The notes under the pieces were generated by a model, which was not told where the DNA came from, did no database searches, and was given only the letters and a program-made list of their open reading frames with translations. DNA of 64,000 nucleotides from an uncultured bacterium (GTDB lineage: Bacteria > Planctomycetota > UBA8108 > UBA1146): positions 42,987-106,986 of the forward strand of contig CALJGL010000023.1 in NCBI GenBank assembly GCA_938075155.1, given 5' to 3'. A program made the position numbers and the translations under genes. Below, piece by piece: positions 8,025-51,026 of the stretch; the stretch's first letter is position 1, and each line of letters opens with the position of its first letter.

Positions 8025-9482
8025 TCAAGGTAACTTCCGTTCCTCTTCTCTTCCTAGAAGGTCGATTTCGTGCTTCTGCCTTTGGTATCGACGCCAGATG
8101 TCTCCCGTTTCCCAACGTGGGGGAGTCAACTCTAACTCCCAATCTTTAAGAAGACCCATAAGTTGCTCCACCCGCTCGGGTTCTTCCATAGCACGATTGG
8201 TGGTTTCACCGGGATCAAGAGAGAGTTGGACGAGTATCGGTTTCTTGTAACCAGAGTTCTCTTTCTCGATACGTATGAGCTTCCAATCCCCCTGTCGAAC
8301 TGCTGCTGCGACTGTACGTCTCCAATATAGAGTTTCACGTGAGATCACATGAGTGCTGTCTTCGAGGAGAGGAAGAAGATTGAGACCGTCTAGCTCAGGG
8401 GATGGGGTATGAGTCTTAGAGCCTGCAACAGCAAGAAATGTGGGAGTGAGATCCAGACTGGATATTAGGGAAGAATTCTCTCCGGAATCGAATCGATCTG
8501 GCCAATGGAAGATAAACGGAACTCTATGGCCCCCTTCCCATTTACTTCCTTTCATTCCTCGCCATGTCCCATTGTCAGAAGCATTGTTTGTGGCTCCTCC
8601 ATTGTCGGAGAGGAAGACGATCAAAGTATCTTTTTCGATTTGTTTTCGTGAAAGAGCGGATCGAATCTTTCCGACACCTTCGTCCAGTGCCGCGACCATG
8701 GCTGCATACTTTCGGCGTTTAGGGTTTTTTATCGATGTGTATTTTTCGAGCAGGTCAGGGCGGGCGTGCATGGGGGTATGGGGAGCGGTGTAAGAAAGCA
8801 TCAGGAACAAAGGTTTGTCGGTTGTGCTTTTTTGGATCAGTCGGACTCCTTCATCCGTGATCCAATCGGTGAAATATGAAAAAGATGATTCTGGTACATG
8901 CTCACCATCTCGTTCGAGAAGTCTCGATTTGGAGAGAGGTTTTTCGAGAACAGGGAAATATGATCGGGAGCCCCCGAGGATTCCTGAAAAATGATCAAAG
9001 CCTAAGGATCGAGGATGGTTATGAGTTTGAGCACCGAGGTGCCATTTACCCACGAGTGCTGTTTGGTAACCCACGCTTTTCAAGCGTGAGGCCAGTGTGG
9101 ATGTCCCCGCGAGTAGACCCGTTCCAGCTCCTCCCAAATTACATTCAAAGCCCTGGGTTTGAGGATATCTGCCCGTCAATAAACCCGCACGGGAAGGAGC
9201 ACAAACGGAGGCGACCACATGGGCATCGGTACAAACAATCCCTTCAAGTGCAATGCGGTCGAGCTGGGGAGTTGAGATATCGGAGACTCCCGTGAATCCC
9301 AAATCGGAATAGCCCAGGTCATCGGCGACGATAAGAATGATGTGGGGTGGGCTCTTCGGACTGATCTCAGCGGAACGCTGAAGGGGCCCAGAACACCCGA
9401 TGGCCCCGAGAAAAACCCAAAAAAATGCAGAGAGAACCAAAAATAAATTCGTGGCAGGGGGAGATCCCGAATTGAAGGCCAT
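8025..9482 (-). CDS. Secreted sulfatase (formylglycine-dependent arylsulfatase family). The ORF track starts at 9602; the internal Met at 9482 gives a proper signal peptide.
   Basis: ILIVADDLGYSDLGFTG and the C-x-P-S-R fGly motif CAPSRAGLLTGRY. N-terminal hydrophobic signal. Confidence 0.85.
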   Translation of the reverse strand: MAFNSGSPPATNLFLVLSAFFWVFLGAIGCSGPLQRSAEISPKSPPHIILIVADDLGYSDLGFTGVSDISTPQLDRIALEGIVCTDAHVVASVCAPSRAGLLTGRYPQTQGFECNLGGAGTGLLAGTSTLASRLKSVGYQTALVGKWHLGAQTHNHPRSLGFDHFSGILGGSRSYFPVLEKPLSKSRLLERDGEHVPESSFSYFTDWITDEGVRLIQKSTTDKPLFLMLSYTAPHTPMHARPDLLEKYTSIKNPKRRKYAAMVAALDEGVGKIRSALSRKQIEKDTLIVFLSDNGGATNNASDNGTWRGMKGSKWEGGHRVPFIFHWPDRFDSGENSSLISSLDLTPTFLAVAGSKTHTPSPELDGLNLLPLLEDSTHVISRETLYWRRTVAAAVRQGDWKLIRIEKENSGYKKPILVQLSLDPGETTNRAMEEPERVEQLMGLLKDWELELTPPRWETGDIWRRYQRQKHEIDLLGREEERKLP

Positions 9483-9896
9483 GATGAATCCTCTCAAATG
9501 TAGGTCGAGGCGGGTATTTGACCAGATCAGCATCTCACTTCTGTCGGTGAGATCCATACCCCAGATCAGCATAATTCGGTTCAATACCACTGTAGGGGTC
9601 ATTTTGAATAGAATTGAGTGGGAATTAAAAAAGGCGCACGGTGGGTTTAGAACCGTGCGCCGGAAGATAGAGATGAAGACTAAATAAGGTGGTCATGCAC
9701 TCTCCTCAAGGAATAAATCCCGACCACAAACGCATTCTATGAGTTAACAATATGGTTAACAAATGGAATATTTGAAAACTCTCAGAGGATGCCTGATCGT
9801 TCCTGATTGACATGGAAGTCCAATTTTGTCCCACTGTTGTTCAGGGGCGGGGGGGATCCGCACCCGAATGTTTGAAACGAATGACAGGGGGATCAA

Positions 9897-11207
9897 GTGT
9901 CACAAGTGACCAACGAGGCTCAACGTTCTCGTCTCTTCTGGGCCAGTTGCATGGCTCTCATTTCTACCTCTATCGCATTTGGAGTGATCACCGCTTCGAT
10001 AACCGATTTTGGGAAGGTGTACAATCTCAGCGAGACGGAGAAAGGCTTTATCGGGGGGGCTGCTCTCGGAGGCTTTGCCTTTTCCATCATCGCACTCGGT
10101 GTGGTGATCGAAAAGATAGGCATCGCCATTTCTCTCAAGATGGCATTCATGTGCCATGTCTTTGGTGCGTTGTTGATGATGTTTGCCGAGGGATTTTCAC
10201 AGTTGATGGCAGGTGCATCCATTATTGCACTCGGAAACGGATGCGTTGAAGCGGGTTGTAATCCACTCGTCGCAACACTGTTTCCCAACAATAAGACGGT
10301 GAGGCTTAACCAGTTTCATGTCTTTTGGCCTGTGGGAATCATCATTGGTACTCTCTTTGGGTACTTCCTGACAGAAGCGGCTGCCACTCTTCCCGCTGGT
10401 GAGGTTTGGTCCTTCATGGGATTGAGCTTGCTGCAAGCGAAGTTGTCCTTGGTTCTTTTGCCCACCGTTGTCTACGGGTTCATGTTCATGGGACAAGAGA
10501 TCCCTCAGACTGAACGGGTGCAGTCAAATATTCCTGCTGCAGAAGTTACAAAGGCGGCGCAGTCACCTTTGTTCTTGACGATGCTCTTCTGCATGGGATT
10601 GACGGCAACATTAGAACTTGCACCGGGTCGCTGGATTGAGGCATTGATGGGTCCCGCTTTTGTGGCGGCAGGCTTCAAGAATAACGCTGCTCTTCTGGTG
10701 CTGGTTTATGGAATGGCTTTGATGGCTGTTCTTCGCTACAGCGCAGGTAGTTTTGTGAAAAAGTTTTCTCCCACAGGGCTGCTCATGGGATCTGCAATCC
10801 TGGGCGGTGTGGGTCTCTTTGCCATGACTTACGCTTCCAGTATGCAGTCGATCTTCCTGACGGCGACGATCTTCTATGTCGGAGTTTGCTTCTTCTGGCC
10901 GACGATGATCGGATTCGTCGCAGAGAGAATTCCCAATAGTGGTGCTTTAGGCCTTTGCCTTATGGGTGGAATCGGAATGCTCGTTGTGGGCTACGTGACT
11001 GTCCCAGGCGTGGGAATGATCCAAGACTACTACAAAGAGGCAGCACTTCTTGCAGGAGAAGGTGAGTCCGCAGCGATCGCCTATGCGGGCAAGATGGCTT
11101 TCCGCTGGGTTGCTGCGTTGGCCATTCCTCTCGTTCTGATTTTCAATCAGTTGAACAACAGGTTTGGTAAGGTTTCGAACGGTGAAAACGTGGCTGTCTC
11201 CGCTTAA
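9897..11207 (+). CDS. MFS transporter, sugar (FucP/glucose-galactose-like) family
   Basis: About 12 predicted TM helices and MFS-type loop motifs. 436 aa. Confidence 0.75.
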   Translation: MSQVTNEAQRSRLFWASCMALISTSIAFGVITASITDFGKVYNLSETEKGFIGGAALGGFAFSIIALGVVIEKIGIAISLKMAFMCHVFGALLMMFAEGFSQLMAGASIIALGNGCVEAGCNPLVATLFPNNKTVRLNQFHVFWPVGIIIGTLFGYFLTEAAATLPAGEVWSFMGLSLLQAKLSLVLLPTVVYGFMFMGQEIPQTERVQSNIPAAEVTKAAQSPLFLTMLFCMGLTATLELAPGRWIEALMGPAFVAAGFKNNAALLVLVYGMALMAVLRYSAGSFVKKFSPTGLLMGSAILGGVGLFAMTYASSMQSIFLTATIFYVGVCFFWPTMIGFVAERIPNSGALGLCLMGGIGMLVVGYVTVPGVGMIQDYYKEAALLAGEGESAAIAYAGKMAFRWVAALAIPLVLIFNQLNNRFGKVSNGENVAVSA

Positions 11208-13974: not shown

Positions 13975-14050
13975 TGGAGCTGGCGACGGGAGTCGAACCC
14001 GTGACCTCAGCTTTACGAAAGCTGTGCTCTACCAACTGAGCTACGCCAGC
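13975..14050 (-). tRNA. tRNA-Thr (anticodon CGU)
   Basis: Reverse complement reads GCTGGCGTAGCTCAGTTGGTAGAGCACAGCTTTCGTAAAGCTGAGGTCACGGGTTCGACTCCCGTCGCCAGCTCCA. Cloverleaf with 7-bp acceptor stem, TTCGACT T-loop, CGT anticodon, encoded CCA. Confidence 0.85.
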
Positions 14051-14180: not shown

Positions 14181-15098
14181 CTACGAAGTCGTGATTTCTG
14201 GGTCAGGAAGTTTGCTGTGGGGATGCTTTTGGTACTCCGCTGTCCGAGCCTCGCTGGTCAGGTGCCTGTATACCTGAGTGGTCGCGAGGTGCTTGTGACC
14301 GAGGAGCTCTTGAACTTCGCGAAGATTCGCTCCGCTATCCACCAAATGAGTGGCATAAGAATGCCTCAAAGTGTGAGGACTCGTTTTCTGATCTAAGCCG
14401 GCACGCCCGACATATCGATCAAAAATCTTGCGAATGGATCGGTCCGAAATTCGTTCTCCGAAACGATTGAGTAAAACAGGGACAGGGGCCCAGTTTCCAT
14501 TCTCTGGAATCCAGCGGGAGGGAATCGCTTCCCTGTAACTGATCAAAGATCGAATGGCATGTTCACCAATCGGTACGATTCTTTCCTTGCGACCCTTACC
14601 GAATGCTCGGACGAGGCGAATTTTGCTGTCGATATGGCACCAGTCGAGAGCCACAAGTTCACTCACCCTTAGTCCTGTACTGTAAAGGATTTCAAGGATG
14701 GCTCTGTCTCGCAATCCTCGATAAGTGTCGGTCTGGGGTTGGTCCAGTAATCGCATCACTTCCTGGATGGTGAGGAAGTGCGGGAGTGACCGCGGGACCT
14801 TTGGCGTATCCAGTTCGAGGAACGCGCAACGGCCTTCGAGTTTGTTTTCTCGTTGGAGAAACCGGAAGTAGCCCCGTACGGAAGCCAATTTACGGGCTAT
14901 CGTAGATCGGGAGTATCCCAGTTCTCCGAAGTGTGCAAGCCAGCGGCGCACCTCTTCGGTGCTTCTGGACACCAATTCCGAGAGATTATTAACTTGAAAG
15001 AACTCCTGAAGTTGCTCGAGATCTTTGCGATAGGCCCGGAGCGTCTCCGAACTTAGATTTCGCTCTGACTCGAGGTGCTGAAGGAATGAATCCATCAA
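14181..15098 (-). CDS. Tyrosine site-specific recombinase, XerC/XerD family
   Basis: N-terminal SAM-like domain (LESERNLSSETLRAYRKDLEQL). C-terminal catalytic HTLRHSYATHLVDSGANLREVQELLGHKHLATTQVYRHL with R..HxxR..Y. Confidence 0.85.
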   Translation of the reverse strand: MMDSFLQHLESERNLSSETLRAYRKDLEQLQEFFQVNNLSELVSRSTEEVRRWLAHFGELGYSRSTIARKLASVRGYFRFLQRENKLEGRCAFLELDTPKVPRSLPHFLTIQEVMRLLDQPQTDTYRGLRDRAILEILYSTGLRVSELVALDWCHIDSKIRLVRAFGKGRKERIVPIGEHAIRSLISYREAIPSRWIPENGNWAPVPVLLNRFGERISDRSIRKIFDRYVGRAGLDQKTSPHTLRHSYATHLVDSGANLREVQELLGHKHLATTQVYRHLTSEARTAEYQKHPHSKLPDPEITTS

Positions 15099-21484: not shown

Positions 21485-22765
21485 TTGGATATTCAAGAAG
21501 AAGTCTCCATCCGCGAATTGATTCTCGACAGAGAGACTCATATCGATTTCTACCATGAAGTTCGCCAAGGCGTGACTTCCCGCAGAGACGCGATCGATGA
21601 ACTCGAATCGCTTATCGATGAAATCACAGATGATTTCAGAAGGGCGATCGCCTTAGATCTTTTGGGAAAAAGGGAAGAGGCGAAGGGGTTCCTGCGTAAT
21701 TGCCAGGACAATGCCATGTGCGTTCACTTGCTTGGAAAACTCAGCCTTGAAGAGGGGAATTCCAAAGAAGCTTTGGTCGTCCTTGAAACAGGATGGGCCA
21801 GCTTTGGATCTGTCGTTCCTAGGATCGGCATGTTGCTTTGCGAAGCAATGATTCATGAGCATCGTATTGATGAGGCTCGTGCATTGCTCTCCAAGTTGCC
21901 CGACTCTGTCGATCACCCAAGAATTTGTTACCTCGAGGGTCTGCTTCACCAACATGAAGGTGACTACGACGAAGCCTTGCAATTCTACTCCACTGCAGCG
22001 GAGGGGCGTCCCGAGGAAACACGATTCCAGTTCCGCCTCGGATACATGCATTCTCTTTATGGTGACGAAGAGTCCGCCATTGAGGCATACCGTATGTGCC
22101 AGAGGAGTACTCCACTCTACGCCAGAGCGATGATTAATCTCGGGCTTCTCTACGAAGACACCGATCGATACGAGGAAGCGATCACCTGCTACCGCATGGT
22201 TCTGCTTTCCAACCCTGATCATAACCGTGCACGTCTCTATCTCCGCGATGCAGAAGCTTCCCAGTCGATGTACTACGATAGGGATAAGGAGAAGGAAAAG
22301 GTACGTATGGGGCAGGTCTTGCAAATACCTGTTACCGAATTTGAACTTTCAGTACGTAGCAGAAACTGCCTTCAAAAGATGGGGATTCACACTCTGGGTG
22401 ATCTCGTCTCAAAAACTGAAGCCGAGTTGCTCTCCTACAAGAACTTTGGTGAAACGAGTCTCCAGGAGATTCGCAAGATCTTGGTTCAAAAGAATCTTCG
22501 TCTCGGGGAAAATTCTCAGAGAGGTGAGACCTCTCTTCTGGGGATGGACAGTGAAGCTCAGGCATTGCTGGGTGAGCCTGTCAGTATTCTTGAGCTTTCC
22601 AGTCGCAGTCAAAGATGCATGGACCGACTCGGCATCGAAACGATCTCAGATCTTCTTCAGCGCAATGAGTTGGAATTAGTGAGCCAGAAAAATTTCGGAG
22701 TGACCTCCCTCAATGAGGTGAAGCGTAAACTGACCGAGCGTGGCTTAACTCTGACCAGCGGATAG
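21485..22765 (+). CDS. TPR-repeat protein with two C-terminal RNA-polymerase alpha-subunit CTD-like (HhH) domains
   Basis: TPR-like repeats in residues 60-260. Two copies of an alpha-CTD-like segment: VLQIPVTEFELSVRSRNCLQKMGIHTLGDLVSKTEAELLSYKNFGETSLQEIRKIL and ILELSSRSQRCMDRLGIETISDLLQRNELELVSQKNFGVTSLNEVKRKL. Compare E. coli RpoA [48 protein letters not shown]. Confidence 0.7.
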   Translation: MDIQEEVSIRELILDRETHIDFYHEVRQGVTSRRDAIDELESLIDEITDDFRRAIALDLLGKREEAKGFLRNCQDNAMCVHLLGKLSLEEGNSKEALVVLETGWASFGSVVPRIGMLLCEAMIHEHRIDEARALLSKLPDSVDHPRICYLEGLLHQHEGDYDEALQFYSTAAEGRPEETRFQFRLGYMHSLYGDEESAIEAYRMCQRSTPLYARAMINLGLLYEDTDRYEEAITCYRMVLLSNPDHNRARLYLRDAEASQSMYYDRDKEKEKVRMGQVLQIPVTEFELSVRSRNCLQKMGIHTLGDLVSKTEAELLSYKNFGETSLQEIRKILVQKNLRLGENSQRGETSLLGMDSEAQALLGEPVSILELSSRSQRCMDRLGIETISDLLQRNELELVSQKNFGVTSLNEVKRKLTERGLTLTSG

Positions 22766-34059: not shown

Positions 34060-34508
34060 ACCCCAATTTCTTCAATTCAACTTCAGTATTCAAATGCGGT
34101 AATATTTCAATGATCCATGCATTTGAATGTTTAACAATTGGGACTGGTTTATCCGTATAGGTGCCCGGAAATGCCTTCCTAGTGGCATTGGCCGCTTTTT
34201 TGTATGCCCGGAATATGCTTGAGTTGTCTTAATGTATTGTTAATATTGCGTTATTAGTCATTCGGTTTGTAGGGATATTGTAAGCCTGCATGTTAGTCGA
34301 TTGGGTGGCTGAAACGCATTGGCACAACGACGATAGCGGAGTTTCTACGACTCTGATTCGTCCTAAATTCCCCAACTTCGTTTGGGGAGAAATGGCTTCA
34401 GCGAGCCATCTGGGAGGAGACGAAATGTCAGATCTTCACATGAAGTCTGTACACACTGTTTCTAAGAGATTCGAATCCAAAGAATCTTGGCAGGGCAGTG
34501 ACGTCAAA

Positions 34509-37500: not shown

Positions 37501-39176
37501 GCAATGGAACATTGATCAGTGAACTGGATGGTCAAGCATCGTCCTACCTCGATACCACCTCTTTACCGGGTGAGTCGAACTACTCGTTGATTGCAACAGT
37601 TTCCGGACTGGATTCGACTGAGTCTGGCTGTCTTGTGCAGCGTGCGCCACTTCCTGTGGAGTCACTCAGCTGTGATAACAATGGCGGGATCGCCGTGTTG
37701 TCTTGGGTGAATCCGGAGCCGTGGGAGCAAGCTGAAATCTATCGGGACGGTCAACTGATCAATATTTTGACTCAGATCCAAAATACCTATCAGGATGATT
37801 TCCTGACAAACTCTGGTTCTGGTCTTCACAACTACGTCATCAAGACTTACTTCGACGGTCTGACCTCAGGAGAAAACTCCTGTGGAATCTTGGTTGCACC
37901 GACTCCGGTCGTCTTGTTCGAGTGCGAGCCCCTCTCGGGTGGTGTTCTGCTTTCTTGGACCAATACAGATACTTACGACCAGATTCAGATCATGAGAGGC
38001 AGTGAGCTTCTGGTGAATTTGGGTGGTGGGTCAACTCAGACCTTCGATGGTCAAGTCGCCAGTGGTGCAGTGATTTACACACTGACGGCTTCTAGAGACA
38101 ACATTACTGCAAGTTCTGTCCAGTGCATGGTGACTATTCCTTCAGCACCAGTTTCAGATCTTGCTTGTTCAGATAGCGCTGGAGGCATCCAGCTTTCATG
38201 GACGAATGCCGACAACTATTCCACGATCGATATTCTTCGAAATGGATCTGTGGTAGACACCATCGCTGGTGCATCAAGTTCATACCTCGATAGTGCCGCC
38301 GGTGGTGGAACCTCGTTGTATCAGGTTGTTCCCAGCAGTAACGGAGTTGCTTCAGGCCTCTCCAACACCTGTGGCGGATCGATGGCACCGCTGCCCATAA
38401 CAGGGTTGCAAGGTCAGTTGATCGAGAACTGTCAGGGAGATGTGCTCTTGAGTTGGAGTAACGCGGAGTCTTACGATTCCATCCGCTTAGAGCGTAACGG
38501 TATTCCTGTAGTGACCTTGGCTGGATCTCAAACTGAGACAACGATCGACGTGGGTGCCCATGGGTTTTACGAGCTTGTGCTTGTTCCAGCGATGGACAAC
38601 ATTGATGGCCCCGCTGTGAGTACCAGTGTTGATTATGTTGCTGAAGTGGTTTCTGCGCCCACCGGATTCTCTGGAAGTGTCGATTCCGATACTTGTCAGG
38701 CGACTCTCTCTTGGTCAAACCAGGGGACTTACTCTCAGATTCAGATTGTTTCTGCAGGAGAAGTTCTGAGCACGCTTGCCGGTGGAGTGAGTTCCGCATT
38801 GATCAATCTTCCTGGTGCTGGTGGATACGTCCTTGATTTGGTCGTTATCGGAGAATGTGGCACTCAGGCGAGTTCCGCCGATTCTGTCGCTCTTGATTGT
38901 TCCGTGAGATTCCTACGAGGCGATCAAAATGGAGACGGAAGTCTGGATATCTCTGACCCGCTCTCATTACTCGGATTCATGTTTGGTGCCGGAGAAGTGA
39001 CCTGTGAGGACGCTTCTGACGCCAACGATGACGGTAATATCGACGTTTCTGACGCTGTACGCATGCTTCAGTACCTCTTTGGAGGGGCCAGCATACCAGC
39101 GCCGATAAACGGCTGTGGAGTCGATCCGACCGCTGATGGGTTGGGTTGTGAGCAGGGAGATCCGAGCTGCTCCTAG
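34509..39176 (+). CDS. Giant secreted protein of about 1555 aa: N-terminal di-heme cytochrome c peroxidase-like domain, an array of about ten ~85-aa Fn3/Ig-like modules, and a C-terminal dockerin-like module. The ORF track begins at 34290; Met at 34509 gives a signal peptide.
   Basis: Signal peptide [22 protein letters not shown]. CxxCH x2 ([16 protein letters not shown]) and CCP signature [31 protein letters not shown]. Repeating LSWTN....YD.I.I.RNG modules. C-terminus [23 protein letters not shown]...[22 protein letters not shown]...[12 protein letters not shown]...C. Confidence 0.75.
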   Translation: [1555 protein letters not shown]

Positions 39177-39465
39177 ATAGAAAACGAGACGTATCTTGCC
39201 GCGGCGACTCGTCGCCGTGGCAAGAAAAAGTCATAATAGTACGAAGTGTCATGAGTTAACTATGCGGTTAATAGGGTATCGTCTGGTAAGTCTTGAAAAA
39301 CAGGCCCCGAAGGTACTTGAATCTGTGCATTCGAGGAATAACATAAGGATCGCAAGTAATGTTGGCGAGAACGCCATCTGTGCGCTAAAGCCTTTATTGG
39401 CGTTAGTATGCGGCCTTATTTAATAGGAATAATAGGCGGGGTTCCCTGTCTCTAGGTGGTGTGTA

Positions 39466-41949
39466 ATGTGTTTACTAAGAATACTTTTTGATAACAAAAG
39501 GGCTGTTTCTGATGGGAGCTATGCCTTGAAAACTCAATACAATGTTGCGAAGTTTTTGTGGCTCGTGTTGTTCATTTCATGCTTTTCAATGAGCGCTTCT
39601 GCTCAGTTGGGCGTGGGCGATGCAACCATGGGTGTTACTGGTGCTGGCGTTAGTGGGGAAATCGAGTTCATGTCAGTCGATGACATGAGCAATCCGTTCT
39701 CCTCGGGAGTCATGGTCATTGCAGGTCAGGCTTGGATTATTCCAGCTAACCTGTTGATCGATCTACCCGCGAACAGACTGACTCTGCAGCAGCTCTTTGT
39801 GCAAGCGCCTTCAGAAGCACTCGCATTCGGAGAATCTGGCCTGGTCAAAGGGGACAGTTCTCTACGAGGTCGTGGTGGAGCAACAGCGCACCTCCTTGGT
39901 AACCAGATGGCTGATGGCCGAAACATTGCCGGAGACATTTTCATCCAAAAAGACGTCGACTCCCTCACTGGTAGGGTGAGCTACATCAATTACGAACAGG
40001 GATATGTTCGATTGAATGGTGACTCCGGATCTGACAGTGGCGGTGTGATGGTTCGTATCAATGATCCAGATAGTATTCATACGATCCAAAATGGACTCGG
40101 TTGCTCTGATGGCCCTAACTGTAGCCCAGACGTTCGATTCACAAATGATCCTGATAACTACACGGTCTGCTTCCTGACCGGATACCCCATGTGTATCCCC
40201 AGTACCCAGACCGGTGGAAACAGAACCACTGGTTCAGATGCTAATGGAGAAGGTGATCCGTTCTGTCCCCAAGCGAATCGCGACGGGGTTCAGCAATCCG
40301 GTGGTATTCTGGCGGAAGACTCTACGCTCTTTGCTCCCCTAAGAGTGGGAGACAATGTCGGAGTAGAAGGAAACAAGGAAATTATTGACGGAGTTGCCTT
40401 TTTCTCTGCTCACACTTTCGGTGTAAACAGAGCCATTCTCACAAGAGATACCCCCGACCAGCCTTCATACGTACTCGCGGATGAAGCAGAGTGGGATGCT
40501 CCTGGATTCGCTAATGAAAGAGCAAAGTCTCTCTTCATTGGATTCTCCTCTCTTGCTGATTCTCAAGTAAATGTATACGCCCTTTATGTCGATCCCTCGA
40601 CGAACGAAAACCACGAGAGAATCCTCGCCAGCACCGTTAATAATCCCATGAACATCAATCATGGAATCGGCCCTGGCGGTGGCAGTATCTTTAAGATGGT
40701 TTACGACGTGGATTTCCTTAAAGGAGCTCCCGTCGGTCCAAGAAGATCTCCTTGTACTCAGCTCAGGATCTCAGGATTCGATGTATGTCCGAATCTAGGA
40801 TCCATGGACGAGGAATTTGCGATTGTGTCCCCGATTGGTCGTGAAATCGTCATGGTTTCAACCCATGAAGCGGAACTATTGCCTGGAGTCACAGCACTCA
40901 ATCTTCAGGGAGAGCCTGCACAGCACGATCGGTATTTGACACCCGCTGGTGTCGGTCACCCCGAGTTTGGTGAGATTGATCTGAACCGTATGTGGTGGCC
41001 TATGATTTTCGCAGGAGAGCCTTGGAACCTCGATCGTCGTCTCGGCCCTGGTGGTTGCGCTGATGTCAATGGTGACGAGATCGTCGATTGTGAAGATATA
41101 AACATAGTTACAGTCGGTGAACTACGACTTGATCCGTTCCCCTTCTCAGGGTTGAACCCCATTACGGGCGTTCAGGGTGGCTTGAACATCAACATTATCG
41201 ATCCCGGCATTCCTGATCCGATCGCCGGTGAAATTTGTAACAATGGAATTGATGACGAAGGTGATCTGCTTGTCGACTGTGACGACCCAGAGTGCACCTT
41301 GGATAACTTCTGCATATTACTTGAGCAAGCCGGTGGCGAAATCGGTGAAGCAGGATTCTGTGGAAACTTCCTCGACGACGACGGAGACGGATTGGCCGAC
41401 TGTGCTGACCCTGAATGTGCATTCACCATCGACTGTGCTGGAATCGGCGCAAACCTTGGATTGCAGTTCGTTCCTGGAAATATGGAACGGGCCTTCGGAT
41501 ACTGGCCCTTCAGATACGAGGACCTCGACGGCGATCCCCTCAATGGTCAAGAAACTCTGGTCGACAGAATCTATTGGGAGAACCTCCAGTTGCTGCCTGC
41601 CGCAGGCACTGGTCCGATGGACATCCCTGAAATCGCAGGCGCATGTTCAAATCTCAATGGTGCTCCTGAGCCAGCACTAGGTGGCCAGTTGGGTATCGAC
41701 CTCGACTTGAATCAGAGTTCTACCAAGGTCATTACACAAGCTGAAATAGTGACTGACCCAGATAGTGATCACATAAGTTTGACATTCGGTAATGGCAGTC
41801 AAGGTGGGTCATTGCAGTTCCTGAATGGGAACTACATATACACCCCCGCACCTGGATTTACCGGAACTGAAAATTTTGAATATACGGCAACGGATCCTCA
41901 CGGTGGAGCGACCCAGGGAACTCTCAGGTTCGACGTTTCCCAGCCATAG
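39466..41949 (+). CDS. Large secreted protein (827 aa). Paralog of the N-terminal about 550 aa of the next gene. Cys-rich DCxDPEC repeats and one cadherin-like module. No dockerin.
   Basis: Signal peptide. Shared N-terminal domain motifs (IPANLLIDLPANRLTLQQLF, GYPMCIPST, NLDRRLGPGGC) present in both paralogs. Confidence 0.65.
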   Translation: MCLLRILFDNKRAVSDGSYALKTQYNVAKFLWLVLFISCFSMSASAQLGVGDATMGVTGAGVSGEIEFMSVDDMSNPFSSGVMVIAGQAWIIPANLLIDLPANRLTLQQLFVQAPSEALAFGESGLVKGDSSLRGRGGATAHLLGNQMADGRNIAGDIFIQKDVDSLTGRVSYINYEQGYVRLNGDSGSDSGGVMVRINDPDSIHTIQNGLGCSDGPNCSPDVRFTNDPDNYTVCFLTGYPMCIPSTQTGGNRTTGSDANGEGDPFCPQANRDGVQQSGGILAEDSTLFAPLRVGDNVGVEGNKEIIDGVAFFSAHTFGVNRAILTRDTPDQPSYVLADEAEWDAPGFANERAKSLFIGFSSLADSQVNVYALYVDPSTNENHERILASTVNNPMNINHGIGPGGGSIFKMVYDVDFLKGAPVGPRRSPCTQLRISGFDVCPNLGSMDEEFAIVSPIGREIVMVSTHEAELLPGVTALNLQGEPAQHDRYLTPAGVGHPEFGEIDLNRMWWPMIFAGEPWNLDRRLGPGGCADVNGDEIVDCEDINIVTVGELRLDPFPFSGLNPITGVQGGLNINIIDPGIPDPIAGEICNNGIDDEGDLLVDCDDPECTLDNFCILLEQAGGEIGEAGFCGNFLDDDGDGLADCADPECAFTIDCAGIGANLGLQFVPGNMERAFGYWPFRYEDLDGDPLNGQETLVDRIYWENLQLLPAAGTGPMDIPEIAGACSNLNGAPEPALGGQLGIDLDLNQSSTKVITQAEIVTDPDSDHISLTFGNGSQGGSLQFLNGNYIYTPAPGFTGTENFEYTATDPHGGATQGTLRFDVSQP

Positions 41950-41981
41950 GTCTCTCAATAAACCGAAAAGAAAACAGGAGT

Positions 41982-44900
41982 GTGAACACCATGTTCAACA
42001 TTAACGAGAAAGAAACAAAGAGGAGAGGTTGGATGATCGCGAATGCGCTCATCATAACAATCTTTCTTGGTTCAGTTCTTTCCTCGACCAATGTCGAGGG
42101 ACAGATAGCAAATGTACCGCAGCCAACTTCAGAGTCGGTAGTAGTCCTCGGTGAGATCGAGAACATCTTCGTCGATGACATGGATGACATGTTCTCTGCG
42201 GGCTGGATTGTTGCAGACGGAGTAGCGGTCAGGATTCCAAGTGGATTACTGATAGACCTCCCTGCTAACCGTCTTACCCTCAGGGATCTCATGGCAGGTG
42301 CGTCACCGGAATGTCTTGCTAATGGAGAGTCCGGGTTGGCGAGCACTGATGAGTGTCTTCGTAATAAGAGCCTCCAGGGTGGTGGTGCGCAAATCCTTGC
42401 AAACCGTTTACAAGATGGATCTGTCATCGCTGGAGACGTCTTTTTGAATAAATCGATGACGGGTAACGTCGCTGGAGGAATCGTTCCTCCAACCGTCGGC
42501 GGATACGTTTCATACATCAATTTCCAAGACGGTTACTTTGTCGTCAATGGTTCAATGAATGAGCGTCCGTTTGCAGATGGCGGACCCGATAAGCGTGGTG
42601 TGATCTGTCGTATTAACGACCCAGAGACACGTCAAACGATTCAGAGCGGCTTAGGCTGTATCACTGGAATGCCAAACTGTAGTCCAGATCCACGATTCAC
42701 TATCGATCCGGATAACTACAGTTGGACGTTTGGAACTGGATACCCAGTGTGTATTCCAAGTACGGATAACACATCGGGTGAACGTGATGACGACAGTGGT
42801 GCGAACATTCTCACCGGTGCCGGTGACGAATTCTGCCCAATGTGGAATCGCAACTTTGAGGGACCACTGAATAGAACTGTGCCTGACTCGACCTTCTTTG
42901 TTCCTCTGGCAGTGGGTGATCCCATTGGTATTGAAGGAAACTTCGAAGTGATCAACGGCGTAAGATTCTTCTCCTCGTATGGAGGAATGGTTCAACTTGG
43001 TCTGAAGACCAAGAATGAAAATGATCAGCCAGATTACATGATTTATGACGAGGTTGAGGGCGACGTTCCTCCCTTTGACAATGCTAGAATCAAATCATTG
43101 GCTATCTGTTTCACAACAATAGATGACATGCATGTGAACCTTTACAAGATGCATAAAGATCCTTCCACGGGAAATGACATCGAGTACATCTGGGGAACTT
43201 CCCTCGGAAATCTCGGAGCCAGATTTAATGGAATCCCGCCTAACGCTGGTGGAATCAACAAGGTCGAATACGATCTAGATTTCCTTCTCGGAGCTCCCGC
43301 AGCTCACGGTCCATGTTTGAATCTCATTAATGGTGGTTTCAATGTCTGCCCTCAGGGTGGAACGATGGAAGAAGAAGTGGCTCTCATGAGCCCTACTTCG
43401 AGAGAAGTTGTGGGCCGTACACTGCATAGCATGTCTCTGAATCCGGGTATTTTCCCCAGAGATATTCTTGGCTTCGAAGCCCAGCATGGAATGTACATTA
43501 CTCCACAAGGTCAGGGACACCCTGAGTTTGTAGAGATCAATCTCGATAAGAACGGCTGGCCATTCATCTTCGAAGGAATGCCTTGGAACTTGGATCGACG
43601 TCTTGGCCCTGGTGGTTGTGACGAAGATGCAGGGTGTGAAAACCTTGCAACTAATCCGGTTGGAAGTTTTCCTCTTACTCCATTCCCTTCAGCGGGTGAC
43701 CCCGATTGGGTATCTCACTCCATCGGTAATGGTATTCCACCGTTCGCTTCGCAAAGAATGACAGCATTTCATCCCTTTGGAGAAAATGACTTTATGCAGC
43801 CATTCTCGGATATACCGGGACCTAATCCAGCACTGCCTGCAGGGCTGTCGGATGGATTAACGGCTGAACATTGTGATATTCCAAACGATATGCCATTGGC
43901 GATTCAGGATTCTCTGAGTGCAGATGAAGACCAAGTCGCAATGATTTCAGACCAGGATTTGCTACTGAATGATTCTGATCCGGATCTCGACCAACTTAGC
44001 CTATTCCATTACGAGTCAACAAGCTTGAATGGCGGTACGATTCAAAGAATAGGGGCTGGACTGGTTTATCAGGGAGCGCCTGATTTCAATGGTAGTGACG
44101 AGTTCCACTACAGTATCACTGATAATCATGGTGGAACCTCACGTGGAAAAGTCTTGGTTATCGTTGCTGCAAAGAACGATGCGCCTGAGGCTCACGCCGA
44201 TTTCTTGACTCCTCCAAGTGACATTTACACATTCCAGGCCGAATTATTGTTAGACAATGACAGTGATGTCGATGGTGACACGATCACATTAGTTTCGATA
44301 AATGAATCTGTGAGCGGGTCCTCTGGAACAATGACAACTAACGCAGATGGAACGTTCACTTTCACTTCAGACCTGAATAGCACGGGTCCCAGTGTTTGGG
44401 ATTACACCATTTCAGATGATCTTGGCGAAACGGCCTCTTCCACATTAACTTTCTATGTGGGTAACCAGGCACCGGTAGCGTCAGATGATAATGTTGTTAC
44501 TGACGAAGACGTCGAATTGGTGATCAATGCACTTAGTGGTGATTCCGATCCAGATGCCAACGATACCCTCGAAGTGGTGTCTACTGGATCTGCTTCCTTT
44601 GGTAGCGTCGAAAATCTGGGTGGTGGATTACTGCTGTACACTCCAGACCTTGATCAGTTTGGGAGCGACGCTTTTTCCTACACGATTACTGACGGTAAGG
44701 GACTTTCTTCAACAGCTACGGTAAACGTATCTGTACTTCCTGTGAATGACGCTCCAAGATTGGGCGCTGATATTGCAGTAACACTTGAAGACCAGCCTGT
44801 TCAGATAAATGTTTTGAATAATGATTATGATCCTGAAGGCGATGCCATGACGGTATCTCTGCCGATCATCAATGCGTTCAACGGTAGTGTTGAGTTACTT

Positions 44901-46478
44901 CAGGGTGGCGTGATTCGATTCACTCCATTCCCCGACATGTCTGTTGGAGTTGCAGATAACTTCATGTACATGGTCACTGACTCAAATGGAGCTTCCTCTT
45001 CAGGAATGGTTTCCATCGAGGTGACACCGGTCAATGATGCTCCTATTGCGAATCCGGATACTGCAGTGACACTGGAAGACATTCCAACATTGGTCAATGT
45101 ATTGGCGAATGATGGAGACGTCGATAACGATCTCCTAAAGGTGATGTCTGTGGATGTCCCAGCAGATTTCCCTGCAGTGGTAACCTGGCAGACCAACGGT
45201 TCGATCGGGATCAGTCCTCATGCGGACTACAATGGAATCACTCCGAGTACCTTCACGTACATTCTTTCAGACGGATTCCTCACCGATCAGGGTGTGGTCA
45301 GTCTGCAAGTGCTCTCGTTGAATGACGCTCCGGTTGCAAACGATGATTTTGGTCATCAAGTGACTGAGGACGGCTCGGTAACTGTGGATGTTCTTGCCAA
45401 TGATACTGACGTCGATGGAGATACTCTTCAGTTAGCCTCAACTACGAATGGACTGTTGGGTCTGGCCGCTATCACGATTGATGGCAGAGTCTCTTACACA
45501 CCATTCCCCAATGCGAATGGTTTCGATAGCTTTACTTACACCGTGACTGATAACGCTGGTGGACAATCTTCTGCCACTGTTGAAGTTGAAATCCTCGCAG
45601 TGAATGACGCTCCCGAAGCAGGAGTATTGCCAATCTTCCCTCTTCCCGAGGATAGTTTGAAAACGTTCACGGCACTTTCAATCCTGCAGCAGGCCTTCGA
45701 TGCAGATGGCGATTCACTCGTTCTGACAAACATCGGGGAACCCGCAAATGGACAAGTCACGATTTCAGTAGATACGCAAGCAAACATCTCGTCGCTGATT
45801 TACGTTCCTAACCCGGACTTCAATGGAATCGATGAGTTTACGTATGAAGTATCTGATATTGCTTCCTCTGGAGCAGGCATCGTTCGCATGAACGTTCTTC
45901 CTGTCAACGACCTGCCTGTTGCAAATAATGACTCAGGTATTCTTGTCGAAGGTGGAACCAGCATCTCGATCGCACCTCTGCTCAATGACGTAGATGTCGA
46001 TGGCGATTCATTGTCTCTGCTCGGTATTATCAGTGGTCCTTTCCACGGGTCGATGCAGATCAATACGGATAATGGCACCCTGACATACAATGCTGACAGT
46101 AACTGGGACGGTGAAGATTCCATGATTTATAGAGTCACGGATAACCATGGTGGAATGGCAACGGCGAGTATCTTGATCGATATCACGCAGGCCACTTCAG
46201 CTGCTGCTTCCATGATTCGCTCCGATGCCAACGTCGATGGACAGTTGGACGTCTCTGATCCGGTGGAAACCATTATCCACTTGTTCCAGGGTCGTGGAGT
46301 TGCATGTCTTGCAGCATTGGATGCCAATGACGACGAACAGATCGACATTGCTGACGTGGTGTTCTCGCTGAGTGGATTGTTCGCTAACGGACAACTTCCA
46401 GCTGCTCCATATCCGTTCTGTGGTCAGGATCCCACTGATAACTTGCTCCCATGTGACGGTTTTGGTCTTTGCGACTGA
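41982..46478 (+). CDS. Giant secreted adhesin-like protein (1498 aa): paralogous N-terminal domain, about 10 cadherin-like/VCBS-type modules, and a C-terminal dockerin-like module
   Basis: Signal peptide. Repeated VNDAP...D.DGD modules. C-terminus SDANVDGQLDVSDPVETIIHLF...DANDDEQIDIADVVFSLSGLF...PYPFCGQDPTDNLLPC...C. Confidence 0.75.
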   Translation: MNTMFNINEKETKRRGWMIANALIITIFLGSVLSSTNVEGQIANVPQPTSESVVVLGEIENIFVDDMDDMFSAGWIVADGVAVRIPSGLLIDLPANRLTLRDLMAGASPECLANGESGLASTDECLRNKSLQGGGAQILANRLQDGSVIAGDVFLNKSMTGNVAGGIVPPTVGGYVSYINFQDGYFVVNGSMNERPFADGGPDKRGVICRINDPETRQTIQSGLGCITGMPNCSPDPRFTIDPDNYSWTFGTGYPVCIPSTDNTSGERDDDSGANILTGAGDEFCPMWNRNFEGPLNRTVPDSTFFVPLAVGDPIGIEGNFEVINGVRFFSSYGGMVQLGLKTKNENDQPDYMIYDEVEGDVPPFDNARIKSLAICFTTIDDMHVNLYKMHKDPSTGNDIEYIWGTSLGNLGARFNGIPPNAGGINKVEYDLDFLLGAPAAHGPCLNLINGGFNVCPQGGTMEEEVALMSPTSREVVGRTLHSMSLNPGIFPRDILGFEAQHGMYITPQGQGHPEFVEINLDKNGWPFIFEGMPWNLDRRLGPGGCDEDAGCENLATNPVGSFPLTPFPSAGDPDWVSHSIGNGIPPFASQRMTAFHPFGENDFMQPFSDIPGPNPALPAGLSDGLTAEHCDIPNDMPLAIQDSLSADEDQVAMISDQDLLLNDSDPDLDQLSLFHYESTSLNGGTIQRIGAGLVYQGAPDFNGSDEFHYSITDNHGGTSRGKVLVIVAAKNDAPEAHADFLTPPSDIYTFQAELLLDNDSDVDGDTITLVSINESVSGSSGTMTTNADGTFTFTSDLNSTGPSVWDYTISDDLGETASSTLTFYVGNQAPVASDDNVVTDEDVELVINALSGDSDPDANDTLEVVSTGSASFGSVENLGGGLLLYTPDLDQFGSDAFSYTITDGKGLSSTATVNVSVLPVNDAPRLGADIAVTLEDQPVQINVLNNDYDPEGDAMTVSLPIINAFNGSVELLQGGVIRFTPFPDMSVGVADNFMYMVTDSNGASSSGMVSIEVTPVNDAPIANPDTAVTLEDIPTLVNVLANDGDVDNDLLKVMSVDVPADFPAVVTWQTNGSIGISPHADYNGITPSTFTYILSDGFLTDQGVVSLQVLSLNDAPVANDDFGHQVTEDGSVTVDVLANDTDVDGDTLQLASTTNGLLGLAAITIDGRVSYTPFPNANGFDSFTYTVTDNAGGQSSATVEVEILAVNDAPEAGVLPIFPLPEDSLKTFTALSILQQAFDADGDSLVLTNIGEPANGQVTISVDTQANISSLIYVPNPDFNGIDEFTYEVSDIASSGAGIVRMNVLPVNDLPVANNDSGILVEGGTSISIAPLLNDVDVDGDSLSLLGIISGPFHGSMQINTDNGTLTYNADSNWDGEDSMIYRVTDNHGGMATASILIDITQATSAAASMIRSDANVDGQLDVSDPVETIIHLFQGRGVACLAALDANDDEQIDIADVVFSLSGLFANGQLPAAPYPFCGQDPTDNLLPCDGFGLCD

Positions 46479-47947: not shown

Positions 47948-48171
47948 ATCGCTCAGCTGGTTGCGGAACTAAAGTGAACTAGCCTTGTTATCGTTTATAC
48001 TGCATCAGCGAATGTCAGGAGAGTTACGTCAGTTAGAGGGTGCGGAGAGCTGCGAATACAGCCATAATAGACCTAGCCCGGTTATTTGAGATTATCGTCA
48101 CTCGTGGACCTTTCGATATTTGGATCTACTGCGATCAACTCTCTCTGCGGAGGGGGTAAGTATCTCCGGCT

Positions 48172-50190: not shown

Positions 50191-50769
50191 CTAGGCGCGA
50201 AGTTCGCTTCCAGCTAGGCGCACTACTCGACGAGCGAGTTCTTCCGGGTCAAAAGGTTTGGCGAGAATGTCGTCGGCACCCAAGAGGCGGGCTCTGTCCA
50301 ACTCGGCTTGCTCCATGGCACTGATCACCAAAATCTTGGTCTTGCTCAGTTCTGGGGCGAGTCTGACATATTCAATGACGTCGAATCCACCTAGACCAGG
50401 AACTCGAAGATCGAGTGTCATCACGCATGGGAGGTGCTCTCTCAAGAGTGATCCCGCAGTGAAGCCATCCTGAGCCATGAATACATCAAAGTTATGTTTT
50501 CTCAGGGTGATTTCGATGGCTTTGGAGACGGTGGGTTCTTTCTCGACGACGAGTACTCGACGCGCGAGGTGCAGGAAATCTCTCGGAATGGGAATGTTGT
50601 TTTCCCTTAGAAACGAGATGAAGTTGCTGATTTCGACGCGGTTATCTCCACGACCGGGCAGCTGATATGCACGTAGCTGACCACGCTGAATCCAGCGAAT
50701 AACTGTACGAAAGTTTACGCCGCAATAACTGGCGATTTCTCCCGTAGTAAGGGTTCTCTTATCGTTCAT
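50191..50769 (-). CDS. Response regulator with reversed architecture: N-terminal MerR/excisionase-type HTH and C-terminal receiver domain. The ORF track extends to 50814; the start at 50769 has a GAGGAG SD 7 nt upstream.
   Basis: HTH in LTTGEIASYCGVNFRTVIRWIQRGQLRAYQLPGRGDNRV. Receiver-like C-terminal half (VLVVEKEPT..., VMTLDLRVPGLGGFDVIEYV, KILVISAMEQ, DDILAKPFDPEEL) with a conserved Asp in TLDLRVPG and K in AKPF. Confidence 0.7.
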   Translation of the reverse strand: MNDKRTLTTGEIASYCGVNFRTVIRWIQRGQLRAYQLPGRGDNRVEISNFISFLRENNIPIPRDFLHLARRVLVVEKEPTVSKAIEITLRKHNFDVFMAQDGFTAGSLLREHLPCVMTLDLRVPGLGGFDVIEYVRLAPELSKTKILVISAMEQAELDRARLLGADDILAKPFDPEELARRVVRLAGSELRA

Positions 50770-51026
50770 CCCACACTCCTCGCACATTACTCTACCTCGG
50801 TTAACAAATTTCAACTCGCAATGAAATTTGTAGTGAAGTCGGAAATCCCAATTGTCGTAACTGATTGATTGGGTGCAGGTTCCGGCTTCTCTTGTAAATC
50901 AACTATACACATATTGTATGTTTGTTAGTCATTTTGTCAATAGTTAGGAATGTCTATATCCGGTCCTGCAGTCCCGATTGGCCAAAAAATACCGGAGTGA
51001 ACTCAAGTTCTTTATGTGTGTCTTAA

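Follow-up and report, generated by a model that had tools for sequence, protein, structure and literature searches.

A divergent pair of a small RNA gene and a transporter gene with a common control region is known from E. coli, where micF and ompC are arranged in this way. Among described regulatory sites, the CRP operator has the form TGTGA-N6-TCACA and the PrfA box, which belongs to the same Crp/Fnr family, reads TTAACANNTGTTAA, while the box of the alphaproteobacterial regulator CtrA is TTAA-N7-TTAAC and MerR-type promoters possess spacers of 19-20 bp that contain a dyad. In Planctomycetota, regulatory small RNAs and promoter architecture are, to our knowledge, almost unexplored. Equally, a search of the literature returned nothing relevant that is specific to planctomycete small RNAs and nothing relevant on published GTTAAC operators.

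The locus described here is part of a 64-kb stretch of DNA, which in its full length is referred to as the window, and centres on site 1 (ATGAGTTAACAATATGGTTAAC at 9739-9760), a 22-mer with two copies of GTTAAC, a hexamer that is its own reverse complement. Site 1 is presented as the promoter, and possibly the operator, of a previously unannotated candidate small RNA in Planctomycetota. As in micF-ompC, the small RNA gene would have its own promoter and an intrinsic terminator and would be read away from a membrane-transport gene, with the linkage kept across genomes; unlike micF-ompC, the locus belongs to another phylum, shows no sequence or Rfam relationship to that pair and has a small RNA that is predicted from sequence. 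With respect to the binding sites, the inverted 5-bp half-sites of site 1 recall Crp/Fnr operators, whereby the 5-6-5 layout is that of CRP and the half-site TTAAC/GTTAA that of the PrfA box, a resemblance to be taken as a lead only. However, 6 bases separate TTAAC and GTTAA in site 1 but 4 in the PrfA box, and site 1 is centred near -24.5, a repressor-type position, rather than at -41.5; among the genes of the window, none of the Crp/Fnr family was recognised. Site 1 equally shares with the CtrA box two TTAA(C) elements at a distance of about one helical turn, although with a gap of N8 and not N7, and with MerR-type promoters a dyad between -35 and -10, although its promoter spacer has the optimal length of 17 bp in 13 of 13 orthologues and thus differs from that of the MerR type. 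The coordinates of the features are collected in Table 1.

Table 1. Features of the small RNA-MFS locus and of the look-alike sites, in positions of the window; promoters of relatives are given by their sequence
Feature	Position	Strand	Remark
Distal GTTAAC hexamer	9755..9760	-	overlaps the -35 TTGTTA (9762..9757), supplying four of its bases
Six-nt spacer between the hexamers	9749..9754		unconstrained/hypervariable, different in each main-clade genome
Proximal GTTAAC hexamer	9743..9748	-	about -21 to -16, within the promoter spacer; best conserved of the pair
-10 hexamer TAGAAT (plus strand ATTCTA)	9734..9739	-	found by promoter search and alignment
Promoter of L006, L125 and L166			TTGTAA-N17-TACAAT
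Promoter of L168			TTGCAT-N17-TACAAT
Promoter of L169			TTGTAA-N17-TACGAT
Candidate small RNA gene, ~100 nt	about 9727 to 9627	-	5' hairpin, unpaired region, terminator; from conservation and fold
5' hairpin of the small RNA	9727..9689	-	predicted fold
Invariant CU-rich stretch UCUUCAUCUCUAUCUUCC	9662..9679	-	predicted unpaired; candidate seed
Intrinsic terminator	9627..9661	-	stem-loop 9661..9633, then T-run 9632..9627; minus strand only
Invariant block GATTGACA...ATTTTGTCCCACT	9805..9835	+	conserved in 13/13 orthologues
MFS transporter gene	9897..11207	+	divergent partner of the small RNA gene
Look-alike site 2	39251..39272	+	perfect TTAAC-N6-GTTAA core; not conserved
Site 3, GGTTAACAAAT	50799..50809	+	single-hexamer look-alike in the response-regulator 5' UTR; not conserved
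Site 4, weak relative	34239..34257	+	not conserved in L041

Conservation of the locus among marine Planctomycetota

The content of the window, with sulfatases and dockerin, cadherin-like and FG-GAP proteins, is that of a marine planctomycete, and its closest genome matches are Planctomycetota MAGs. Besides the locus under study, the window codes for a 426-aa protein of unusual architecture (21485-22765, plus strand) in which TPR repeats occur together with a pair of RNA polymerase alpha C-terminal domains (two stretches matching Pfam PF03118). A tyrosine recombinase gene (14181-15098, minus strand; Phage_integrase and SAM-like N domain) adjoins a tRNA gene (13978-14050) and may either be XerC/D-like or mark the border of an integrated element.

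The comparison set consisted of the window and 12 further marine Planctomycetota genomes or contigs (L001-L006, L125 and L165-L169), 13 in all, with MFS proteins at the 12 orthologous loci that are 57-95% identical to that of the window. The order lpxA, GT4 gene, small RNA gene (minus strand) and MFS gene (plus strand) is retained in all relatives examined, while the downstream minus-strand neighbour of the small RNA gene varies among genomes. In the window, site 1 is located in a 294-bp gap between a sulfatase gene (8025-9602, minus strand) and the MFS gene. This sulfatase gene has been inserted in the window lineage between the GT4 gene and the small RNA terminator, at which the GT4 gene of the relatives directly ends, and its start codon follows the U-run of the small RNA by only about 25 nt, so that read-through of the terminator could feed into the sulfatase gene. 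On the other hand, neither the RNA nor the motif accompanies the MFS homologue L173, which is more distant (53%) and has different gene neighbours, so that the module is confined to the lpxA-GT4-MFS clade.

Conservation of the intergenic region at the MFS locus is far above that of silent sites. Fourfold degenerate sites are saturated between the window and L002 and L006 (31-36% identity); against the 36% at these sites, 189 of 271 intergenic positions are identical between the window and L002. For the window and L001, the respective values are 257 of 269 intergenic positions and 90% of the fourfold degenerate sites. Within site 1, both hexamers are identical across the seven main-clade genomes, bar one base in L165, with a spacer that reads AATATG, GAGGAG, CTTTGG, TTTTGA, TCTTAA, TTTCGA or CAACCT. 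Even between the window and L001, its nearest relative at this locus, 4 of the 6 spacer bases differ, though neutral sites differ by only about 10%, and one third of all intergenic differences between these two genomes fall into the 6-nt spacer (binomial p ~1e-3 by our own arithmetic). Inversion of a loop was considered as the source of this divergence and rejected, since reverse complementation of the window's spacer does not give that of L001. As judged from the alignment, the retention of the half-sites around a drifting 6-nt spacer is a clear sign that both have been under selection, and site 1 taken alone is, by its conservation, strongly non-random.

A candidate small RNA gene and its putative promoter

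Site 1 coincides base for base with the -35 element and the spacer of a minus-strand promoter that would be divergent to the MFS gene. The promoter, TTGTTA-N17-TAGAAT, is of the sigma-70 type, with hexamers near TTGACA and TATAAT at a distance within 16-18 bp and agreement at 9 of 12 positions; base 9739, the first base of the 22-mer, is also part of the -10 box, namely its last base in plus-strand reading. The consensus layout in the 13 orthologues is TTGTWA (-35)-N17-TASAAT (-10), whereby the -10 element is realized as TAGAAT, TACAAT or TACGAT at 17-nt spacing in every one of them. Both elements and their spacing persist in 13/13 even with decayed hexamers: in other clades the distal hexamer reads GATTAC, GTTTAC or GCATGC, and the -35 is always kept (TTGTAA, TTGCAT). 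The same promoter type is used elsewhere in the lineage, as three genomes have kept TTGACA-N16-TACAAT in front of the response-regulator gene. A plus-strand promoter at site 1, TTAACA-17-AATATT, was discarded, as it is not kept in L002-L006.

About 7 nt past the -10 element begins a conserved segment of ~100 nt, the predicted fold of which is far more stable than that of shuffled sequences (z = -3.8) and in which the G-U pairs of the 5' hairpin fit the minus strand. Its 18-nt CU-rich stretch is invariant in the 7 aligned genomes, and a 13-nt core thereof, CTTCATCTCTAT, is identical in 12 of 13, with a 2-nt deletion in L169. The segment ends in an intrinsic terminator with a GC-rich hairpin and a U-run on the transcribed strand, the stem of which shows compensatory changes in 4 pairs and is replaced by a wholly different stem in L168; a clean U-run is missing in L006, L125, L166 and L167, being degenerate in the first three. 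A terminator of this type is also found behind tRNA genes in the window. A check by eye for a conserved open reading frame on either strand of the small RNA region found none, and the alignment contains 1-nt indels. Two small open reading frames, from a minus-strand ATG at 9697 (23 codons) and from a plus-strand ATG in the invariant block (MKTK, then stop), were rejected because the peptides are not kept in relatives. Equipped with a promoter and a terminator to itself and lacking a conserved open reading frame, the segment has the appearance of a free-standing gene.

Searches against Rfam at the gathering threshold recovered two tRNAs in the window and nothing else, and at permissive thresholds the best match within 9550-9950 had E = 1.4, far below the gathering threshold. 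A covariance model built on the small RNA detects a single copy at each locus, in every case adjacent to the MFS gene, and none near site 2. Furthermore, a metagenome scan with the invariant 17-mer GAAGATAGAGATGAAGA gave, among the matches listed (at least 120 stretches), one true homologue (L125).

Because of the conserved promoter boxes and the conserved, terminated, non-coding RNA of ~100 nt downstream, site 1 is read here, with a probability of roughly 70%, as the core promoter of a minus-strand small RNA gene that points away from the MFS gene. To go by the sequence, transcription by RNA polymerase carrying the housekeeping sigma factor would start at about 9727. The resulting RNA would base-pair via the CU-rich stretch with purine-rich ribosome-binding or translation-initiation regions, a mode of action that is a plausible guess only. 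The complement of the stretch, GGAAGAUAGAGAUGAAGA, resembles a ribosome-binding site and AUG, but duplex predictions between the seed and the MFS leader gave inconsistent sites across genomes and long artificial loops.

On the opposite side of the intergenic region, the invariant plus-strand block probably serves the MFS gene as promoter or control region. The region of the block can be read as TTGACA-N17-CCCACT or as TTGACA-N19-CACTGT, the latter with an over-long, MerR-like spacer, and a hairpin with a G-rich loop (9844-9865) follows the block just before the MFS start.

Look-alike sites, chance and rival readings

The first-pass annotation had paired site 1 with a second 22-mer, site 2 (ATGAGTTAACTATGCGGTTAAT at 39251-39272), and the sequences and coordinates that it gave, as well as the identity of 18/22, are exact. 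Its placement of both sites about 135-200 nt upstream of plus-strand genes also stands, with 137 nt measured from site 1 to the MFS start (GTG at 9897) and 194 nt from site 2 to the downstream start (ATG at 39466). The partial copy GGTTAACAAAT and the weak relative that it reported do exist, yet at 50799-50809 instead of 50794-50804 and at 34239-34257 instead of 34242-34260. Site 2 is found between a 1628-aa gene ending at 39176 and an 827-aa cadherin-like gene starting at 39466. What had been described as one giant gene at 39466 consists of this 827-aa open reading frame and a separate 1498-aa cadherin-like open reading frame (41982-46478), both within the span 39466-46478 on the plus strand, and the same two-gene arrangement occurs in L041 and L042. 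About 45 nt downstream of site 2, a plus-strand box TTGAAT-N16-TAACAT (39317-39344, read by eye) is conserved as TTGWAW-N16-TAACAT in L041 and L044 and is likely the promoter of the 39466 gene. In the case of the HTH_17-receiver gene, the promoter TTGACA-N16-TACAAT (50913-50940, minus strand, 11/12), which is conserved in L170 and L171, is located about 145 nt upstream and therefore implies a long 5' UTR.

Comparison of the flanks demonstrates that sites 1 and 2 cease to be alike exactly where the 22-mer ends. Neither a duplicated flank nor a mobile or repeat element is thus involved, and the local duplication that the first-pass annotation had itself named as a counter-explanation does not apply. 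In 5.5 kb of intergenic DNA, 2 distant 18/22 matches were seen against ~0.3 per shuffle. The second of these, 110-131 versus 48123-48144 in reverse-complement orientation, is unrelated to sites 1 and 2; it is probably due to chance and provides a yardstick for their resemblance. The GTTAAC hexamer itself occurs 8 times in the window with 6.2 expected and is neither over- nor under-represented, and a scan of 243 kb of same-clade DNA with up to 2 mismatches matched the hexamer pair only at the orthologous RNA promoters and at site 2. On account of these pair-match, 243-kb and hexamer counts, sites 1 and 2 resemble each other no more than stretches of intergenic DNA may do by chance, and their likeness is suggestive at best.

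These observations bear on the proposal of a small regulon, in which one dimeric HTH regulator with the operator GTTAAC-N6-GTTAAY would control its own gene (50191-50769) in addition to those of the MFS transporter and of the 39466 surface protein. The perfect core of site 2, with three of its four mismatches to site 1 in the 6-nt spacer that is free in orthologues, speaks for such a regulon, as does the finding of 2 sites with up to one mismatch in the 64-kb window where 0.14 are expected, a count to be read in the light of the pair having been picked by the first-pass annotation out of all possible pairs. However, a motif conserved upstream of two genes is not what the relatives possess: in L044, the nearest relative here, in which the neighbouring protein is 95% identical, site 2 reads CAATAGTTAACTAGGACGATTGAAC, with the first hexamer retained and the second lost, and the corresponding gaps of L041 (72%) and L042 (63%) contain no GTTAAC pair. 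Nor is autoregulation of the response regulator borne out, as site 3 is absent in L170 (regulator 93% identical) and falls into the 5' UTR, well downstream of the promoter that is actually conserved. With the pairwise similarity within chance, no additional site in the 243 kb of related DNA, sites 2, 3 and 4 not conserved and site 1 itself inside the small RNA promoter, about 46 bp upstream of the MFS -35-like box, the regulon is decidedly improbable. Somewhat better odds, although still those of an unlikely case, are given to site 2 as a recently gained, strain-specific second operator of the regulator of the small RNA promoter, which would couple cadherin-like surface proteins to the small RNA. 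It is the perfect core together with the position of the mismatches in the free spacer for which this reading is kept; the spacing of 6 nt is identical, all 10 core bases are exact and the site precedes the conserved sigma-70-like box at 39317-39344. Yet the site is absent from the closest relative, its intergenic region evolves fast overall, and one match to the core TTAAC-N6-GTTAA in 243 kb is unsurprising (~0.2 expected by chance, our own arithmetic). Around site 2 itself, a search for a promoter-like signal found none.

A further reading, in which the hexamers form a hairpin (stem of 6 bp, variable loop of 6 nt) with a role as an RNA or DNA structure and not as a site of protein binding, would account for a conserved stem and a hypervariable loop in the seven main-clade genomes and for the self-complementarity of GTTAAC. 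The stem, however, is short and AT-rich and shows no compensated change, L006, L125, L166, L168 and L169 no longer allow the pairing although they retain the -35 and -10 elements, and no conserved promoter would put the hexamers inside a transcript. The lack of covariation rules the hairpin out as the main explanation, and what chance is left to it is very small. In comparison with the relatives, sites 2, 3 and 4 appear to be chance look-alikes of site 1, and a regulon that seems plausible in a single window does not survive the comparison of orthologous regions.

The hexamer pair as a possible operator

While the -35 element accounts for the distal hexamer, conservation of the proximal hexamer, for which 12 of 13 orthologues have GTTAAC or GTTAAT and L167 has GTAAAT, goes beyond the needs of sigma-70. 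Neither this near-invariant GTTAAY nor an invariant C at about -28 is explained by a sigma-70 promoter. The two hexamers contain the dyad TTAAC-N6-GTTAA, an inverted repeat with half-site centres 11 bp apart that extends from about -32 to -17. Symmetric half-sites about one helical turn apart around a varying spacer, as in the operator of a dimeric regulator, are present in all seven main-clade genomes; the L006 clade has an imperfect form of the dyad (TAATC-N6-GTTAA). The dimeric-regulator operator of the first-pass annotation hence survives in part: site 1 is a selected cis-element with half-sites kept and spacer free, but not a generic operator upstream of the MFS gene.

That the hexamer pair of the small RNA promoter doubles as the operator of a putative dimeric regulator is possible, with the odds leaning slightly against it. 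A bound regulator, most simply a repressor, would occlude the promoter. The proximal hexamer could also be kept for a reason intrinsic to the promoter, such as spacer geometry, and not for protein binding. No regulator gene linked to the small RNA locus was found in the relatives, and among DNA-binding proteins sought in the window only the HTH_17-receiver protein was recognised, which nothing ties to site 1. Equally, the 243 kb scanned did not reveal the dyad at other genes in a form conserved in relatives.

In its most far-reaching form, the analysis would describe a new regulatory small RNA, strictly conserved in a marine Planctomycetota clade and always paired with an MFS gene, with a promoter gated by a putative dimeric regulator via TTAAC-N6-GTTAA with its hypervariable spacer and with the same operator newly gained upstream of giant cadherin-like genes. 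This combination as a whole is a long shot; if true, it would tie cell-surface remodelling to a small RNA. In any case, the locus offers a concrete candidate, a promoter with -35 and -10 elements and a possible operator, an RNA of ~100 nt with an 18-nt candidate seed and a fixed MFS partner.
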